64,000 bases of DNA from Glaucostegus cemiculus (GCA_976551045.1 CDPCPM010000007.1:13640001-13704000), one strand, 5' to 3'. Positions 11,940 to 51,423 are shown, counted from the stretch's first letter. Notes: generated by a model from the sequence alone, not told the origin. Numbers and translations are program-made.

Positions 11940-14575
11940 TCAATTGAGTTACAGACATTGGATTTAAAAAAAGACATAGCTCAGACATACAAGTCAGAAA
12001 CAGGAAGGGAGCGATCATTCTATTGGGAGTATTCTACAGAGCCCCCAATAGCAGCAGAGATGCTGAGGAGCAGGTCGGGAGGCAGATTTTGGAAAGGTGC
12101 AAAAATAACAGGGTTGTCATGGGTGAATTTAACTTCCCTAATATTAATTGGCACCTCCTTAGTGTAAAGGGGATAGATGGGACAAAGTTTGTTCGGTGTG
12201 TACAGGAAGGACTCCTAACAGTATGTGGATAGGCCGACTAGAGGAGAGGCCATACCAGACCTGGTACTAGGCAATAAGCTTGATCAGGTTTCAGATCTCT
12301 CGGTGGGAGAGCATTTTGGAGATAATAACCATAACTTCTTGACCTTTACCATAGCCTTGGAGAGGGATAGGAGCAGATGATATGGGAAAGTATTTAACTG
12401 GGGGAGGGGGAATTATGGTGCCTTTAGGCAGGAGCTTGGGAGCATAAATTGGGAACAGATGTTCCTGGGGAAGTGCACAGTGGAAATGTGGACATTGTTT
12501 AAGGAACACTTGTATGGGCTTTTGGATAGGTTTGTCCCATTGAGGCAGGGTAAGGATGGTAGAGTGAAGGAACCTCGGTTAACAAGAGATATAGAATATC
12601 TTCTCCAGAGGAAGAAAGAAGCTTATCTGAGATTTAGAAAGCATGGATCAGACAGTGCTCTGGAGAGTGAAAAGGTAGCTAGGTGAGAGCTTAAGTATGG
12701 ACTTAGGAAAGCATGAGAAGTCCTTGGCGAGTAGGATCATGGAAAACCCCAAGGCATTCTACACTTACGTGAAGAATAACAGGATGACTAGAGTGAGGGT
12801 AGGACCGATCAGGGATAAGAGGAAACATGTGCCTGGAGTCGGAAGAGGTAGGGGAGGTCCTTAATGAATACTTTACTTCAGTATTCACCAGAGAGAGAGA
12901 GACCTTGACATTTGTGAGGATGGTGTATGACAGACTGATATGCTAGGGCATGGAGATGTGAGGAAAGAGGATGTGATGGAACTATTGAAAACTATTAGGA
13001 TTGATAAGTCACCAGGGCCGGGCAGGATATATCCAAGGTTATTACAGGAAGCTAGGGAAGAGATTGCTGTGCCTTTGGTGATCATCTTTGCCTCCTCAAT
13101 GGCCACAGGAGTAGTGCCAGATGATTGGACAGTGACAAATGTTGTTCCTTTGTTTAAGAAAGGGAGTAGAGATAACCCTGGGAATTACAGACCAGTGAGT
13201 CTTACTTCAGTGGTGGGCAAATTACTGGAGAAGATTCTTAGAGACAGGATTTATAGGCATTTAGAGAAGCATAGGCTGACTAGGCACAGTCAGCATGGCT
13301 TTGTGAGGGACAGGTTGTGCCTCATGAGCCTGATTGAATTCTTTGAGGATGTGACAAAGCACATTGATGAAGGTAGAGCAGTGGATGTGGTGTGTATGGA
13401 TTTGAGTAAGGCATTTGATACAGTTCCTCATGGAAGGCTTATTCAAAAAGTCAGGAGGCATGGAATCCAGGGAAACTTGGCTGTGTGGATTCAGAATTGA
13501 TTCGCCCATAGAAGACAGAGGGTGGTGATAGATGGAGCATATTCTGTCTGGAGGTCAGTGACCAGTGTTATTATGCGGGGATTTGTTCTGGGACCCCTGC
13601 TCTTTGTGATTTTTATAAGTGACTTAGATGAGGACGTGGGTAGGTTAGTAAGTTTGCTGATAACATGAAGATTGGTGATGTTGTAGATAGTGTAGAAGGT
13701 TGCTGTAGATTACAACAGGATATTGATAGAATGCACACCTGGGCTGAGAAGTGGCAGGTGGAGTTCAACCCACATAAATGTGAAGTGATACACTTCGGGA
13801 GATCAAACTCAAAGGCAGAATACAAGGTTAATGGCAGGACTCTTAGCCGTGTGGAGGAACAGAGAGATCTCGGGGTCCGCATCCATAGATCCCTCAAGGC
13901 TGTTGCACAGGTCGATAGGGTTGTTAAGAGGTGTATGGTGTGTTGGCCTTCATTAGTTGGGGTAATGAGTTCAAGATCCGTGAGGTAATGTTGCAGCTCT
14001 ATAGAACTCTGGTTAGATCACAATTGGAGTATTGGGTTCAGTTCTGGCTGCCTCATTATAGGAAGGATATGGAGGCTTTGGAGAGGGTGCAGAGGAGATT
14101 TAACAGGATGTTGCTTGGATTGGAGAGCATGTCTCATGAGGATAGGTTGAGCAAGCTAGGGCTTTTCTCTTTGGAGAGGAGGAGGATGAGAGGTGACTTG
14201 TTAGAGGTGTACAAGATGATAGGAGGCATAGACTGAGGGGACAGTCAGAGACTTTTCCCAGGGAAAATGGCTAACACAGGGGGCAGGGGGCATAATTTTA
14301 AGGTGATTGGAGAAAGGTATAAGGGGGATGTCAGGGGTAAGTTTTTGTTTTACATAGGGAGTGGTGGGTGCGTGGAATGCACTGCCTGCAGAGGTTGTGG
14401 GGGCAGATACGTTAGGGCCATTTAAGAGACTCTTAGATAGACACATAAATGATAGAAAAATAGGGGGCTGTGTGGGAGGGAAGGGTTAGGTAGACCTTAG
14501 AGCAGGATAAAATGTCAGCACAATATTATGGGCCGAAGGGCCTGTACTGTGCTGTAGTGTTCTATGTTCTATTAT
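11940..14575 (+). mobile_element. 5'-truncated CR1 LINE (EN-RT pseudogene)
   Basis: Fragmented ORF2: GVFYRAPNS, MGEFNFP, KSPGP, NYRPVSLTS, DLSKAFD, ERRRMRGDL; tail gtgttctatgttctat. Confidence 0.92.
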
Positions 14576-15035: not shown

Positions 15036-15336
15036 TTGAGCAGGTACGGAGACCTTCGGAAATTAACGAATTGTTGGGGTTTTTTTTCCCTTCTCTAGTG
15101 TTCGGGGAGTTGGAGAGTGCAGTGCGCAGGCGCGTGACGTCATCGGAGGCGAGCGCGGGATTTAAAAGACAGGCCACCCTATCCGGCGGGCAGCGTCGGA
15201 GCGGGCAGCGGAGGGAGTGGTAGCAGAGTGGTTTGGGCTTTGGCTCAACGGGCTTAGGCGCAAACGGGTGAGAGGCGAGTTAATCTGTATAGGCTCAGTT
15301 AACCCATACTGTGTAATAAACGTTAGGTAGTAAAGT

Positions 15337-16259
15337 ATGCATCTGGGATTGGTACTGTGTGTAGAGTGCCAGATGTGGGGATCCTGGGAGACTACCAGAC
15401 TCCCCGATAACTACATCTGCACAAAGTGCAGATGTTGCGGCTCCTTAAAGAACGTGTAGAGAGTCTGGAGCTGCAGCTTGATGACCTTCGGCTTATTAGG
15501 GAGAGTGAGCAAGAGATAGATAGGAGCTATAAGGAGTTTGTTGAAAGCACTTCTGGAGCGGTTCCCCTCGAGAATCGATATCTTATCTTAGATTCCGTTG
15601 GAGAGGATGACCGCTCTTCTAGGGCGGTTCCCCTCGAGAATCGGTACCTTATCCTAGATTCCGTTGGAGAGGATGACCCGACAGAAGAAGATCATGGCAA
15701 CCGGGACATTGGCACCGCACCTGGTACTGTGGTCAGGGGGGTTAAGAGCAATATAGTGGTTATAGGAGACTCGATAGTGAGGGGGACAGATAGCAAATTC
15801 TGTGAGTCCGACAATGTATCCCGGATGGTGTGTTGCCTCCCTGGTGCCGGGGTAAGGGATATCACGAACCGGTTCCAGAATATCCTGAGGGGAGAGGGGG
15901 AACAGCCAGAGGTCTTGGTACATGTTGGCACCAATGACATAGGCAGGAAAGGAGAAGGGGTCCTGAAGGAAGAATACAGAGAGTTAGGTAGGAAGTTGAG
16001 GAGAAGGACCCCTAAGGTGGTAATCTCAGGATTGCTGCCTATGCCACGCGCAAGCAGTAGCAGGAACAGAAAGATATGGCAAATGAACGCGTGGCTTAGT
16101 GACTGGTGCAGGGGGCAGGACTTCAGATTCCTGGACCATTGGGACCTTTTTTGGGGGAGGGACGACCTATACTGCAAGGATGGGTTACACCTCAACTCAA
16201 AAGGGTCCAGAGTCCTGGCGGGATTGTTTAACATAGCTGTTGGGGAAGGTTTAAACTAA
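15337..16259 (+). CDS. CR1 ORF1 (CxxC-x16-CxxC zinc finger, coiled coil, SGNH esterase), frameshifted at ~15429
   Basis: ATG 15337 gives MHLGLVLCVECQMWGSWETTRLPDNYICTKC, then the frame changes to QMLRLLKERVESLELQLDDL. SGNH blocks VIGDSIVRG, HVGTNDI and DGLHL are present. Confidence 0.85.
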
Positions 16260-16342
16260 TCAAGCAGGGGGATGGGACCCAGAATATTAGAGTAAAAGTA
16301 GATAGAGAAAGGCAGGAGTTAAATAAAAATAGGTCGAAGTTA

Positions 16343-19300
16343 GTGCGTGATCAGGATGGCAAGACGGACAGGCAGGTGATTAATCAAGGTAACATGCTGA
16401 ATGACAATAGTACAGTAAATGAGGATGTTAGGTCACAGGATGTTAGACTAGAGGTGGAGGCAGATAAAAAGAAGTCCATGATAGTGAGCAGTCAGGATAG
16501 AAAGAAGGGTGAGGAAATGAAAATTAAGGATAAGTTGCTCAAAAAAGGAAGCGCAACAAAATCAACAGTGGTTAATGAGCTAAAGGTATTATACTTAAAT
16601 GCATGTAGCATCAGGAACAAGGCAGATGACCTAGTAGCACAGCTACAGATTAATAAATATGACATTGTGGCAATCACTGAGTCGTGGCTGCATGATAGAT
16701 GTGACTGGGAGCTCAATGTCCAGGGGTACACAGTGTATAGGAAGGATAGGCAGGAAGGTAGAGGGGGTGGTGTGGCCATGATGGTTAGTAATGAGATAAA
16801 ATCAATAGAAAGGAAGGACATTAGGTCAGATGAAGTGGAAACTTTATGGGTGGAGCTAAGGAATAGCAAGAGTAAGAGGACAGTTGTAGCTGTTGTATAT
16901 AGGCCCCCTAATAGCAATCAGGAGGTAGACCATAAGTTGCGGTTAGAGATAGAAAAGGCATGTCAGAGTGACAATATTAAAATAATTATGGGTGACTTTA
17001 ACATGAAGGTGGACTGGGAAACCCAGCAAGGCAGCAGTTCTCAGGAGAGTGAGTTTGTTGAATGTTTACGGGATGGCTTTTTGGAACAACTTGTTGATGA
17101 GCCCACCAGGGGATCGGCTGTTTTGGATTGGGTGTTGTGTAATGAACCGGAGGTGATTAGAGAACTAAGGGTAAAGGAACCATTAGGAACTAGTGACCAT
17201 AATATGATTGAGTTCAGAATGAAATTTGAAAAGGAGAAGCTGATGACTGGAGTGTCGACATTTCAGTGGAACAAGGGGAATTACAGAAGGATGAGAGAAG
17301 AGTTGGCCCAGATTGATTGGAAATATAAGCTCGCTGGAGGGACGGCAGAACATAAATGGGTGGAATTTAAGCAAGTAATAAAGAAAATGCAGGACAGACA
17401 CATTCCAAGAAAAAAGAAGGTTTTAAATGGAAAAAGGGCACAAATGTGGATAACGAGAGAGGTGAAAGCTAAAATAAGAGCAAAAGGGAGGGCATATAAG
17501 GTAGCAAGAAAAAGCGGAAAAACAGAAGACTGGGAAACTTTTAAGAACCTACAGAAAGAAACTAAGAAGGTCATTAGAAAAGAAAAGAGAAATTATGAAA
17601 TGAAATTGGCAGAAAACATTCAAAAGGATACTAAGAGTTTTTTTAAATATATAAGAAGCAAAAGAGAGACGCGGGTTTATATAGGACCGATAGAAAATGA
17701 GGCGGGAGAAATTATTATGGATGATAAAGAGATGGCGGAGGTGCTAAATCAGTATTTTGCGTCGGTCTTCACGGTAGAAGATATTAACAATATACCGGTT
17801 AGTCAAGGGTCTCGAGGGACGGAATTAAGGACAGTTAAGGTTACGAGAGAGAAAGTGTTGGGGAAGCTAAATGGGTTAAAGACTGATAAGTCCCCGGGAC
17901 CAGATGAGATACATCCCCGTGTACTGAAGGAAGTAGCTCTAGAAATAGTGGAGGCATTAGTGATAATTTTTCAGGAATCGATAGACGCTGGAGAGGTGCC
18001 GGAGGACTGGAGGGTCGCTAATGTAGTTCCATTGTATAAGAAAGGTGGGAGACAGCACAAAGGAAATTACAGGCCTATCAGTCTTACATCTGTGGTGGGA
18101 AAGATACTAGAATCGATCCTCAAGGATGAGGTGATGGGATACATGGAGGTGCAAGGCAAGATAGGTCCTAGTCAACATGGGTTCGTGAAGGGAAGATCCT
18201 GCCTGACCAATTTATTGGAGTTTTTTGAAGAAATCTCAGGCAGGGTGGACAAGGGAGAGGCCGTAGATGTAGTGTATTTAGACTTTCAGAAGGCATTCGA
18301 CAAGGTGCCGCACAAAAGACTAATTAGTAAGATGAGAGATCACGGAATAACAGGCAGGATAACAGAATGGGTGGAGAGTTGGCTGGATGGCAGGAAACAG
18401 AGGGTGGGAATAAAAGGATCGTGTTCTGGTTGGCTGCCGGTTACTAGTGGTGTTCCGCAGGGGTCGGTGTTGGGGCCCCTTCTTTTTACCTTGTATATTA
18501 ATGATTTAGATGAAGGAGTTAATGGGTTTGTGGCCAAGTTTGCAGATGACACTAAGATTGGGGGGGGAGTGGAGAGTATTGAGGAGACAGGAAAGTTACA
18601 GAGAGACTTGGATATTCTAGGAGAATGGGCGAAGAAATGGCAGATGAGGTTCAACGTGGAAAAATGTGCAGTTGTACACTTCGGAAGTAGAAATGGAAGG
18701 GCAGACTATTATCTAGAAGGAGATAAAATTGGAAGCACAGAAGTACAAAGGGACTTAGGGGTGCTCGTACAGGATAACCTAAAGGTTAACCGCCAGGTTG
18801 GATCGGCAGTAAGGAAAGCGAATGCTATGTTGGCATTTATTCCGAGGGGTATAGTATATAAAAGCAAGGAAGTGTTGATGAGGCTATACGGGGCACTGGT
18901 GAGGCCTCACTTAGAGTACTGTGTGCAGTTTTGGGCCCCATACCTTAGGAAGGATGTGCTGATGTTGGAGAGGGTTCAGAGGAAATTTACTAGGATGATT
19001 CCTGGGATGAAAAAGTTTACATATGATGAGCGACTGTCGTCACTTGGACTGTACTCGTTGGAGTACAGAAGAATGAGAGGGGACCTAATAGAAACATACA
19101 AGATGTTGAAAGGAATGGACCAAGTGAATGTGGTCAAGCTGTTTCCCTTGGTGGGGGAATCCAGGACTAGAGGACACAAACTTAGAATTAGAGGAAGCAG
19201 GTTCAAAACAGAGATAAGGAGGAATTTCTTTAGCCAGAGGGTGGTGAACCTGTGGAACTCCTTACCACAGAAAGCAGTGGAAGCCAGATCATTGGGGATA

Positions 19301-19378
19301 TTCAAGAAGGAAATAGATAGATATCTAATTGGTCAAGGTATCAAGGGATATGGAGATAAGGCAGGGATTTGGACTTAG
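16343..19378 (+). CDS. CR1 ORF2: APE endonuclease + reverse transcriptase, uninterrupted
   Basis: 1011-aa ORF with EN motifs (YLNACSIRNK, AITESW, GGGV, MGDFN, SDHN) and RT motifs ([33 protein letters not shown]). The frame is open from 16232. Confidence 0.96.
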   Translation: MRDQDGKTDRQVINQGNMLNDNSTVNEDVRSQDVRLEVEADKKKSMIVSSQDRKKGEEMKIKDKLLKKGSATKSTVVNELKVLYLNACSIRNKADDLVAQLQINKYDIVAITESWLHDRCDWELNVQGYTVYRKDRQEGRGGGVAMMVSNEIKSIERKDIRSDEVETLWVELRNSKSKRTVVAVVYRPPNSNQEVDHKLRLEIEKACQSDNIKIIMGDFNMKVDWETQQGSSSQESEFVECLRDGFLEQLVDEPTRGSAVLDWVLCNEPEVIRELRVKEPLGTSDHNMIEFRMKFEKEKLMTGVSTFQWNKGNYRRMREELAQIDWKYKLAGGTAEHKWVEFKQVIKKMQDRHIPRKKKVLNGKRAQMWITREVKAKIRAKGRAYKVARKSGKTEDWETFKNLQKETKKVIRKEKRNYEMKLAENIQKDTKSFFKYIRSKRETRVYIGPIENEAGEIIMDDKEMAEVLNQYFASVFTVEDINNIPVSQGSRGTELRTVKVTREKVLGKLNGLKTDKSPGPDEIHPRVLKEVALEIVEALVIIFQESIDAGEVPEDWRVANVVPLYKKGGRQHKGNYRPISLTSVVGKILESILKDEVMGYMEVQGKIGPSQHGFVKGRSCLTNLLEFFEEISGRVDKGEAVDVVYLDFQKAFDKVPHKRLISKMRDHGITGRITEWVESWLDGRKQRVGIKGSCSGWLPVTSGVPQGSVLGPLLFTLYINDLDEGVNGFVAKFADDTKIGGGVESIEETGKLQRDLDILGEWAKKWQMRFNVEKCAVVHFGSRNGRADYYLEGDKIGSTEVQRDLGVLVQDNLKVNRQVGSAVRKANAMLAFIPRGIVYKSKEVLMRLYGALVRPHLEYCVQFWAPYLRKDVLMLERVQRKFTRMIPGMKKFTYDERLSSLGLYSLEYRRMRGDLIETYKMLKGMDQVNVVKLFPLVGESRTRGHKLRIRGSRFKTEIRRNFFSQRVVNLWNSLPQKAVEARSLGIFKKEIDRYLIGQGIKGYGDKAGIWT

Positions 19379-19433
19379 AATAGTAGGTTTTTTTTTCCTT
19401 ATCCTCTTTTTTTCCCCACCCTCCCTTCCCTTT

Positions 19434-19502
19434 GGAGCAGACCCGACGGGCCGACTGGCCTGCTTCTGCTCCATTATCTTGTGATCTTGTGATCTTGTGA
19501 TC
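19434..19502 (+). repeat. CR1 3' terminal stem-loop and 8-mer tail
   Basis: GGAGCAGA (19434-41) pairs with TCTGCTCC (19465-72), with an inner GGCC-gact-GGCC hairpin, followed by ATCTTGTG x3. Confidence 0.85.
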
Positions 19503-20300: not shown

Positions 20301-21589
20301 ATGATTATAGGTTTCACATTTTCTTCACTTAGAGACACAATTTTCTTGTCTTTTACTGTCCCATTATCACCCATTTGCTTCTTGGACCTTCACTCTTATT
20401 TTTCACCCTATCACAGCCTTTCCCTTTTATTGTTTCCACTCCTCTCACCCTTCCACAACTCCAAACTTAAAATTTATTACACCTCTAATTTTTTCCTGAA
20501 CATCACTGCATACCTAGAAAGTTTACTTTATTTCTCAAAGTCATATTTACACAGTGTGTTTAACACAGTAAAATGTAGGCAGTTCACAGTAGCCAAGTCA
20601 AAGTTGGGCAGTGGGCCAAACAAGGAACGAAACTGCAAGCTTTAGTGTATTTTAACAGACAAGAGGTTTAGGCAGGGAATACCAGGGTTGATGAGGCACA
20701 TACATCATTGTAATGAAGTGCAATGAAGGTCAGGATATTGAAGAGGCCAGAAATGAACAAACGTGGATACTCCCCCACTGATGCCATTTGATCTGGTCAG
20801 TAGTTCCAGCATTTTCAATGTTTATTTTGTTTATTGTTTCTGAAGGTATCCGAATTTTCAGAGTGTGAATGCTCTTATTTCTTCAGCCCACTCAAGGGTT
20901 TTCAGACAAGGTTTGGTGCCAACTGCATAAGGTTGGATCTGCCCAAACTGGATGAAAAGCCAGTGGCAGAGTTAGTTCCAGAACACAGCTGCACTCAGAA
21001 AAGTCTGCTTGGTTAGTAACACGAAAGACTACAGCTCAAAACTACTGGTGCAAAAAACATTCCTGTGGATGTCGTCTGTAAATAGTACACTGGAATTTCT
21101 GGAAAGCCAAATATGTTTCTGAGAGCTTCTCTGTACATTTTACAAGAAATACAATACAGAACGAAAGATAATTTTGTTGATCTCACAGATTGCAAATAAT
21201 GGAACTAAGTAATCAAAAAATACTTGATAGATAAAACACAAACTTTACCATGACATTTGAATGTTTGCTAAGTCCGATATCAAGATAACTAAATTTTCCA
21301 CTCCTGCACCCTGGGGACACTCTTACCTGCTGCACATTCTTACCAAAAAGTTGCACAGGCACAAGCTGTTATTTTGTTTTCAGAGTTAATGTCACATCAG
21401 AGTCCCAAAGTGGAAAGCTACCTCAATCTTGCCAAGTTCCTGTTTTGGAGGCACTCACACAGCATTACAGACATAAGCCAGCTAATATACACAGATTTTA
21501 TGAGAAATTCTTATTACACCAACAATTTTTCAATATGTCAATGTCTAGAATGAGAGATTAATTCTAATTAGTGACCAACTATAAGTTCG

Positions 21590-21820
21590 AAGTGTTCTAC
21601 GCGATGTGTAGGGCAAGAGATTTTTTTGCACACAGAATGGCAGGTGCCTGGAATGCGCTGCCAGGGATAGTGGTGGAAGCAGATATGATGGTGTCTTTCA
21701 GGAGACTTTTAGATAGGCACATGAATATACTGGGAATGGAAAGATATGGATCATGTGCAGGCAGAAGGGCATAGTTTAATTTGCCATTATGCTCAGCACA
21801 GACATCGTGGACTGAAGGGC
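21590..21820 (+). mobile_element. CR1 3' end fragment
   Basis: FFAHRMAGAWNALPGIVVEA..FRRLLDRHM, the CR1 ORF2 C-terminus, plus 3'UTR. Confidence 0.8.
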
Positions 21821-50402: not shown

Positions 50403-51423
50403 TTTATGCTCCCGAACTGGAAAACTATCCTGAAAACTCCTCATCCAGTTTTCCTGTGCCATCTAATTTTCCAGACAAAATGTGTATTTAAATACCCCAT
50501 GATTATCATTGTACCTTTCTACCAAACTCTCATTGCTTCTTTCTTAGTCCTATTGTGGTTACAGTTAGGTTTCCTACACTCCACTGCCACAATTGACTTC
50601 TTGTCTTTATTTTGTCTCATTTCCACCCAAACCACTTCTACATCCTGACTTCCAGAACTTCAGTCCTCCCTATCTTTGCACGCATGTGATCATTAATCAA
50701 CAGAATTACTCCTTCACCTTTTCCTAACATTCTTTTCTTCTAAATGTCATATATCTTGAATATTAATGTCCCAATCTATGTTGTTTTACAGCCATGTTTC
50801 CATAAAGAGATCAGAACATATTTATTTTTATTTGTGTTCTTAGTTCATTTGTATTGTTTTGAATGCTACAGAGCCTGTAGTTTTACCTTCTTTTATCATT
50901 TTTATAACCTCTGCCATATTTGCTGATTTACTCTTAGAATTGTACTCAGTATTCATTCCTGTCACACTCTGTTTATAATTTTCCATATTAATAACTTTTT
51001 CTCTAGCCTTGTCTCCACTCTTTGATTTACCACATCTTCCCAATTTTGATACCTGGATCCTTTGCCTCTGCAATTTAATTTCTATAAATGGTATGGAACT
51101 TAAAGATACCTAATGATTAAATGTGGAAATTGATAATGTCCTTCATGGTTCACATGAGTATGTGTTAATAGAAGGCTTAAAATATCTGTTGTGTTTACAG
51201 ACTATCAGCAGGCTTCCATATGACTCAATAGAACACTGATCCCAGCACAATTCAAGTCAGCTGGAATGTTCTTGTTTTCACAATGATAATTATATAGTTA
51301 AGTGTAGATTAAGATTTTGTATCATAAAAATACTGTTACCCCTCCATGTACAGTACTGCAAGTTTTCAATTGCAATATATGTTGGATTAAAACAAAAGCA
51401 CATTGTCTTTCCTTCTATGTAAG

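Follow-up and report, generated by a model that had tools for sequence, protein, structure and literature searches.

In most vertebrates, CR1 is described as the dominant group of retrotransposons (PMC13343379), and the canonical vertebrate element is described with an esterase ORF1, an ORF2 carrying an APE-type endonuclease (EN) and a reverse transcriptase (RT), a 3' stem-loop and a repeat tail (PMC13343379; 4C1B, PMC3905857). The mode of CR1 ORF2 translation is not addressed in the literature that we found, including the relevant portions of PMC2734521, PMC3592465 and PMC8535693. The word frameshift does not occur in the main texts of PMC13343379 and PMC3905857, and CR1 does not occur in the portion of the frameshift review PMC5009743 that was covered. 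A literature search on frameshifting in CR1 and other LINEs found no proposal for CR1; an earlier suggestion may exist in the older CR1 literature. In the bicistronic elements LINE-1 and SART1, the junctions consist of a 63-base spacer or a UAAUG overlap, and termination-reinitiation has been proposed for LINE-1 and shown for SART1 (PMC5972666; PMC3708506). Among non-LTR elements there is a precedent for frameshifting: the APE-type Dictyostelium elements TRE5-A and TRE3-A both need a -1 frameshift for ORF2, according to the review PMC5911963. The heptamer U_UUA_AAC is the frameshift site of IBV and belongs to the heptamers listed as most prone to shifting on mammalian ribosomes (PMC5009743).

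The element in the window and its ORF junction

The window, a 64,000-nucleotide stretch of Glaucostegus cemiculus DNA, contains a young full-length LINE (Table 1). Alignment to the copy L318 showed 56 substitutions in 4408 bases over 15084-19492, and alignment to a second copy, L317, reached 19502; the best-scored 40 junction copies of this family were 98-100% identical. Esterase-type vertebrate CR1 elements end in a 3' stem-loop and a short tandem-repeat tail without poly(A), and the element in the window ends in the same way. Its ORF1 encodes an SGNH esterase, and its ORF2 carries both an APE endonuclease and an RT. ORF1 matched the esterase structure PDB 4C1B (E 2.8e-30). A profile search of PDB with the EN domain matched LINE-1 EN structures (E 2e-9), whereas a search using a single EN sequence gave no match. 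Homologues of the element were found in rays and sharks. On this architecture and on the homology of ORF1 to bird, turtle and lizard elements, the element was classed as an esterase-type vertebrate CR1.

Table 1 Features of the CR1 element, with positions counted from the first letter of the window
Feature	Position	Strand	Evidence or remark
Young full-length CR1 LINE (esterase ORF1, EN and RT ORF2)	15084..19502	+	Alignment to copies L318 and L317
ORF1 (Cys-rich N-terminus, SGNH esterase)	15337..16259	+	3' part open 15411-16259; Pfam PF13472, E 5e-16
TAA closing the -1 frame, 6 codons before the heptamer	16229..16231	+	
Slippery heptamer T_TTA_AAC, the final two codons of ORF1 (Leu-Asn)	16250..16256	+	
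ORF1 stop TAA, abutting the heptamer	16257..16259	+	
7-base spacer, length fixed, sequence variable	16260..16266	+	
Conserved G motif, candidate frameshift stimulator	16267..16276	+	G tract 16266-16276
Charged linker, -1 frame	16277..16573	+	First ATG 16394, not conserved among lineages
APE-type EN domain	16574..17250	+	Asn 16598, Glu 16679; Pfam PF03372
RT domain	18041..18691	+	Pfam PF00078, E 6e-35; ORF2 stop TAG 19376-78
3' UTR: pyrimidine tract, terminal stem-loop 19434-19472, short tandem-repeat tail	19379..19502	+	

An earlier note on this locus had proposed that ORF1 is fused to ORF2 at a -1 frameshift site, and all of its coordinates were borne out when the sequence was rechecked. The heptamer TTTAAAC lies in X_XXY_YYZ phase with ORF1, which ends GGT TTA AAC TAA. 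The -1 frame is the ORF2 frame and, once past the TAA that closes it upstream, stays open over 16232-19378 (1048 codons); it reads KVLYLNA near 16580 and has its first ATG at codon 48 past the heptamer, and a G tract follows close behind the heptamer. The 10-mer TTTAAACTAA had one match in the window, compared with a mean of 0.37 in shuffled sequences, 32 of 100 of which contained a match. It is not rare by chance, and the case rests on position and conservation.

The ORF1 of the window copy carries a net 1-base loss near 15430 relative to L318, and the frame from ATG 15337 consequently stops at 15457-59, a break absent from the earlier note. Among 29 sibling loci, eight have ORF1 uninterrupted from its start to the terminal Leu-Asn and stop (LN*).

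Conservation of the junction across CR1 lineages

Junctions were sampled through the upstream codons for DGLHLN, an anchor chosen to avoid selecting on the heptamer; the anchor pattern had 4,601 matches in the genome, versus 25 for the reversed pattern. The 70 sampled loci (the first 30, and 40 of 70 further DGLHLN places listed) comprised 36 with TTTAAAC, 11 with a CAC variant, 17 with other variants of one or two letters and 6 without the junction. Two of the 17, L052 and L057, are probable chance matches in rearranged copies. After further copies had been added through DNA and protein searches, 203 junctions were clustered into 7 groups of at least three members and 25 small groups, the latter kept outside the lineage tallies. 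Two groups were split in two, giving nine, and a T_TTA_CAC subfamily was set apart, leaving eight lineages from this genome. A metagenome scan yielded 48 loci, 26 of which were examined; the vertebrate-type ORF1 end was reached in 10 of these, and all 10 had TTTAAAC. Five contigs with ORF2 intact into EN were added, bringing the total to 13 lineages: L251, whose ORF1 end matches a protein cluster named in sturgeon; L253, whose relatives are named bird and turtle proteins; and L254, L255 and L258, labelled bird-type by their likeness to L253. The 13 lineages are related and hence are not independent trials, but their EN domains share only 37-78% identity with the first row of alignment A2.

ORF1 ends in NNT TTA AAC TAR in all 13 lineages, eight from this genome and five from the sturgeon- and bird-type contigs. 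The residue preceding LN is G, A, S, C or H, and its codon always ends in T. In the same ORF1 tails, TTA encodes 10 of 98 Leu and AAC 25 of 51 Asn, and T occupies 72 of 256 comparable third positions; among the same lineages, silent sites in the DGLHL motif close by change freely. Genome-wide, 9,298 of 10,226 matches to TTRAAYTAR-N7-GGGGG-NN-G, a pattern that accepts silent changes, were exactly TTTAAAC, while the reversed-pattern controls gave 60 and 6 matches. The ORF1 stop is TAG in 10 lineages and TAA in 3, and TGA is rare at this position (49 matches genome-wide versus 9,298 with TAR). Within the window's family the heptamer agreed in 29 of 30 copies, which is uninformative because these copies are 98-99% identical. 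The X_XXY_YYZ sequence is thus in zero-frame phase and kept at silent sites, as in frameshift signals.

Modal distances from the heptamer to EN in the families of this genome were 186, 120, 126, 324, 117-123, 288-300 and 138 bases, a range of 117-324 bases in which all are multiples of 3 in the -1 frame, save in the T_TTA_CAC subfamily. Old copies scatter around these distances through indels. From the heptamer to EN the -1 frame is free of stops in all 13 lineages, and the +1 frame contains 3-19. Summed over the lineages, the log10 chance that the frame would stay open as far as the first ATG or EN comes to about -10; the lineages are treated as independent here, which overstates the value. 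The linker itself varies almost three-fold in length among lineages and is little constrained at the amino-acid level: between families F and G, 12, 7 and 8 differences fall at the three codon positions in the linker, compared with 22, 19 and 42 in EN, and purifying selection on the linker was not seen in these differences.

The earlier note had named synonymous variation of the Leu and Asn codons, a variable ORF2 frame, and stops between the heptamer and a conserved ATG as observations that would speak against frameshifting. In 13 of 13 lineages no synonymous variant occurs at the heptamer and ORF2 lies in -1; there are no stops between the heptamer and EN, and no ATG is conserved. Its reading of the CR1 junction as a programmed -1 frameshift site thus appears well supported at the level of sequence.

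A natural control is provided by the T_TTA_CAC subfamily, in which 20 copies have a CAC-type heptamer (17 of them TTTACAC). Its linker is mostly 122 bases long, which puts EN out of frame; the ORF1 end is shifted in many copies, and ORF2 was in pieces in the copies checked. Here the heptamer and the ORF2 frame are lost together, which would fit a subfamily that spread without an enzyme of its own. This control has modest weight, because it represents one event in an old family.

Covariation at the ORF1 end extends to more distant proteins. The statement in the earlier note that other vertebrate CR1 ORF1s end in LN* was borne out by named proteins of shark, ray, lizard, bird, turtle and sturgeon. 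Counting proteins with a DGxH motif 18-60 residues from the C-terminus, we found the LN ending in 51 of 58 qualifying shark-side proteins (of 94 hits) and in 36 of 37 qualifying bird-side proteins (of 107 hits). Among 87 of 132 distant ORF1 representatives, the ending was LN in 46, GN in 6, KN in 2, KK in 1 and another dipeptide in 32, so that 55 of 87 have a slip-compatible C-terminal dipeptide, against a background of 4.9%. LN never follows Q, K, M or W and follows E in 3 of 133 cases; GN is preceded by Q in 5 of 6 cases, and KN by S. At the protein level, this covariation matches what U_UUA_AAC, G_GGA_AAC and A_AAA_AAC would need, and it is hard to explain by protein structure. DNA encoding the GN and KN elements was sought, including in viral contigs and prokaryote genomes, and none was found: the viral contigs contained no relative (two distant protein matches and two pattern matches were not CR1), and the prokaryote genomes contained none.

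The downstream G motif and the reading of the junction

Behind the ORF1 stop, with positions counted from the heptamer, G occupies +11 to +15 and +18 in every one of the 13 lineages, +19 in 12 and +20 in 11. The 7 bases between the stop and the motif differ in sequence among lineages and are fixed in length; genome-wide, 9,298 matches have the 7-base spacer and 140 have longer spacers to G5. The residue that the -1 frame encodes at the first G of the motif varies (Q, R, L, E, M or K), and its Gly is always GGG, a codon used for 101 of 364 Gly in ORF2. GGGGG starts at 0.2% of positions within ORF2 bodies. A conserved 3' motif at a fixed, longer spacing is the arrangement of protein-stimulated frameshift sites.

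The earlier note had suggested that the G tract helps the slip; its position proved to be fixed, and neither a local fold nor a consistent G-quadruplex was seen. Local-fold z-scores ranged from -2.2 to +1.8 for 12 elements at 3 lengths, indicating no stable fold, and a G-quadruplex was the best fold in just 1 of 12 elements. The 3' tail was the top-ranked partner of the G motif in the window's family only, and this pairing did not exceed controls: the junction probe was equalled or beaten by 4/25, 8/26, 19/31, 5/31 and 7/27 other G probes, and swapped pairs were as good as matched pairs. A C-rich ORF1 stretch about 630 bases upstream was a well-ranked partner in 7 of 7 elements, and pairing with it was rejected, as matched pairs had no advantage (permutation p 0.15). 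Structured stimulators mostly start 6-9 bases past the slip site; the minority located 12-15 bases away may be linear and linked to trans-acting factors (review PMC5009743). Since no fold or pairing was supported and linear stimulators are described there, a bound protein seems the favoured partner of the motif.

The conserved anatomy of the junction thus comprises the phase of the heptamer, an adjacent UAA or UAG, an open -1 ORF2, G5 at +11 and no conserved AUG. On these features, we consider it highly probable that esterase-type CR1 LINEs produce an ORF1-EN-RT fusion through programmed -1 frameshifting on U_UUA_AAC. Ribosomes would translate ORF1 to UUA AAC, and most would terminate there and release ORF1p. 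In a minority, tRNA-Leu and tRNA-Asn would slip back one base ahead of stop reading, and the ribosome would then read the flexible linker into EN and RT, giving a predicted fusion of ~1370 residues (329 + 1042 in L318). Slow termination at the adjacent stop perhaps aids the slip. With less assurance, we suggest that the unstructured G motif stimulates it at the edge of the mRNA entry channel, probably via a bound protein. A wider proposal, that esterase-type CR1 across jawed vertebrates and its relatives with G_GGA_AAC or A_AAA_AAC use a -1 frameshift fusion switched on by a protein at the unstructured G5, 10 bases downstream, is tentative, and we lean slightly to doubting it as a whole. Among the observations counted against frameshifting are an ATG soon after the stop in 4 lineages, weak linker constraint, the lack of a hairpin and the broken ORF1 of the window copy.

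The ribosome could instead terminate at the UAA or UAG and restart in -1 at a nearby AUG or non-AUG codon, releasing a free ORF2p, with the G motif holding the ribosome. An in-frame ATG does lie 2 bases past the stop in the bird-type contigs L253, L254 and L255 and 5 bases past it in family G; a conserved AUG overlapping or adjoining the ORF1 stop, as in SART1, is otherwise absent, being present in these 4 of 13 lineages only. The stop is also invariant and nearly always TAR, and AUG-independent ORF2 initiation is reported in LINE-1 (PMC5009743; PMC5972666), so a missing AUG alone does not force a frameshift. In nine lineages the first -1-frame Met falls at codon 48, 15, 18, 28, 5, 4, 4, 4 and 22 (the ATGs of the window's family are at codons 48, 76 and 89). 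However, no Met precedes the EN Asn in four lineages (D, F, H and L251), and the linker of F can be aligned with the linker of family G, which does carry the ATG. Where the frame is open as far as the EN Glu, such a Met was lacking in 6 of 6 copies of F and 6 of 7 of D. In L301, a family F copy with both ORFs unbroken (ORF1 325 aa, ORF2 1033 aa), the first Met is codon 168, beyond the EN Asn107 and Glu134 and 34 codons past the latter; in the other family F copies L299, L300 and L302 it is codon 168, 151 and 119. The conserved EN Glu aligns with the QETH motif of LINE-1 EN by profile match, and we take it to be catalytic. An AUG start in L301 therefore cannot yield a whole EN; this copy has FSDD at the RT motif and may not be active. 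A -1-frame ATG just upstream of the heptamer is absent in 24 of 25 elements, and the exception is already fused by an indel. Reinitiation would, moreover, leave unexplained both the letter-for-letter heptamer in slip phase and the LN/GN/KN covariation, and we regard it as unlikely.

Still less likely, and in our view very improbable, is that LN is kept for protein reasons and that TTTAAAC(TAR)-GGGGG serves as another signal in DNA or RNA, such as a TATA-like internal promoter driving an ORF2 transcript, a splice acceptor, or a site for packaging or protein binding. TTTAAA is similar to a TATA-like box, and in families A and C the G run is preceded by an acceptor-like CAG/G, but the AG is absent in families D and G, and the GN and KN variants retain slip-compatibility, not TTTAAA. 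The TATA-like and splice-acceptor readings were rejected because of this variation among lineages. Even a transcript of ORF2 alone would, in four lineages, provide no AUG ahead of EN, and a DNA or RNA signal does not require the exact ORF1 phase or a -1 frame open from the heptamer. That the junction is common merely by descent, without function, is scarcely credible: the lineages are related and the copies of the window's family are 98-99% identical, but silent sites 80 bases upstream and the spacer beside the stop vary in the same lineages, as does the length of the linker.

Comparison with known frameshifting and bicistronic systems

If programmed frameshifting on U_UUA_AAC is true of CR1, the active enzyme would be an ORF1-EN-RT fusion, CR1 ORF2 annotations beginning at the first ATG would be wrong, intact copies would have to be defined by heptamer and frame, and the ratio of ORF1p to ORF2p would be set as in retroviruses. 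If the shift is also switched by a protein, a chromosomal retroelement would use a trans-activated frameshift, and the host or ORF1p would directly control RT output. The fixed G motif is short, can be tested directly, and is a candidate for a vertebrate frameshift stimulator that lacks structure.

In its esterase ORF1, APE and RT ORF2, stem-loop and repeat tail, the element studied here is the same as canonical vertebrate CR1. The Dictyostelium elements TRE5-A and TRE3-A, likened to it on the statement of the review PMC5911963, differ from CR1 in host and ORF1. Like LINE-1 and SART1, CR1 has a bicistronic non-LTR RNA from which a low ORF2 output is needed; unlike in those elements, its frames overlap, its junction contains a heptamer and no AUG is conserved. 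In arteriviruses (nsp1beta with PCBP) and cardioviruses, linear stimulators with trans-acting factors act over spacers of 11-14 bases (PMC5009743). CR1 resembles this type in its linear motif, starting at +11, and departs from it in that the motif is G-rich, the stop is adjacent and the spacer of 10 bases is one under the quoted range. Compared with retroviral and coronaviral sites, CR1 has no stable local fold 5-9 bases downstream by z-score, and no protease domain was detected by Pfam in its predicted fusion. With retroviral gag-pol and coronaviral 1a/1b, CR1 shares the same in-phase X_XXY_YYZ heptamer and, as predicted, the same output of a structural protein together with a minority polymerase fusion.

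Sequence around the ORF1/ORF2 junction

In the CR1 families C, E and H, ORF1 ends in NNG GGT TTA AAC and carries a second in-phase heptamer, G_GGU_UUA, which overlaps the proposed frameshift heptamer U_UUA_AAC; the family of the window element has A_GGU_UUA at this position. The length of the G run directly 5' of the heptamer varies in many family C copies, among them L310, and these changes fuse ORF1 and ORF2 at the DNA level, one copy forming a single frame of 1296 codons. Either misassembly or genuine slippage could account for these length changes.

In L295, a distant element with an esterase-type ORF1, ORF1 stops at a TGA with CTA as the next triplet, beyond which frame 0 continues without a stop into EN-like sequence (L295:1318-1744). 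This junction looks like a case of stop-codon readthrough rather than frameshifting.

Copies, remnants and database entries

The 66-base unit AVPLENRYLILDSVGEDD in ORF1 is present in two copies in the window element (15557-15690) and in one copy more in its sibling L318. A private T at 16604, where most sibling copies have C, changes the family's NAR to NAC at the endonuclease start. LINE-type ORF1 esterases were also found on short contigs under bacterial names (P0023, P0146 and P0084; Pseudomonas, Klebsiella and Symploca), probably reflecting contamination by host DNA.

Coordinates of older CR1 remnants in the window and of a family C copy
Feature	Position	Remark
Older broken CR1-like ORF2 fragment(s)	about 12200-14430	one side of the CR1 element
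Older broken CR1-like ORF2 fragment(s)	about 21570-21770	other side of the CR1 element
Older broken CR1-like ORF2 fragment(s)	about 50470-50800	other side of the CR1 element
L310, family C copy	G000:C302:256200-261800	G-run length change, as in other family C copies
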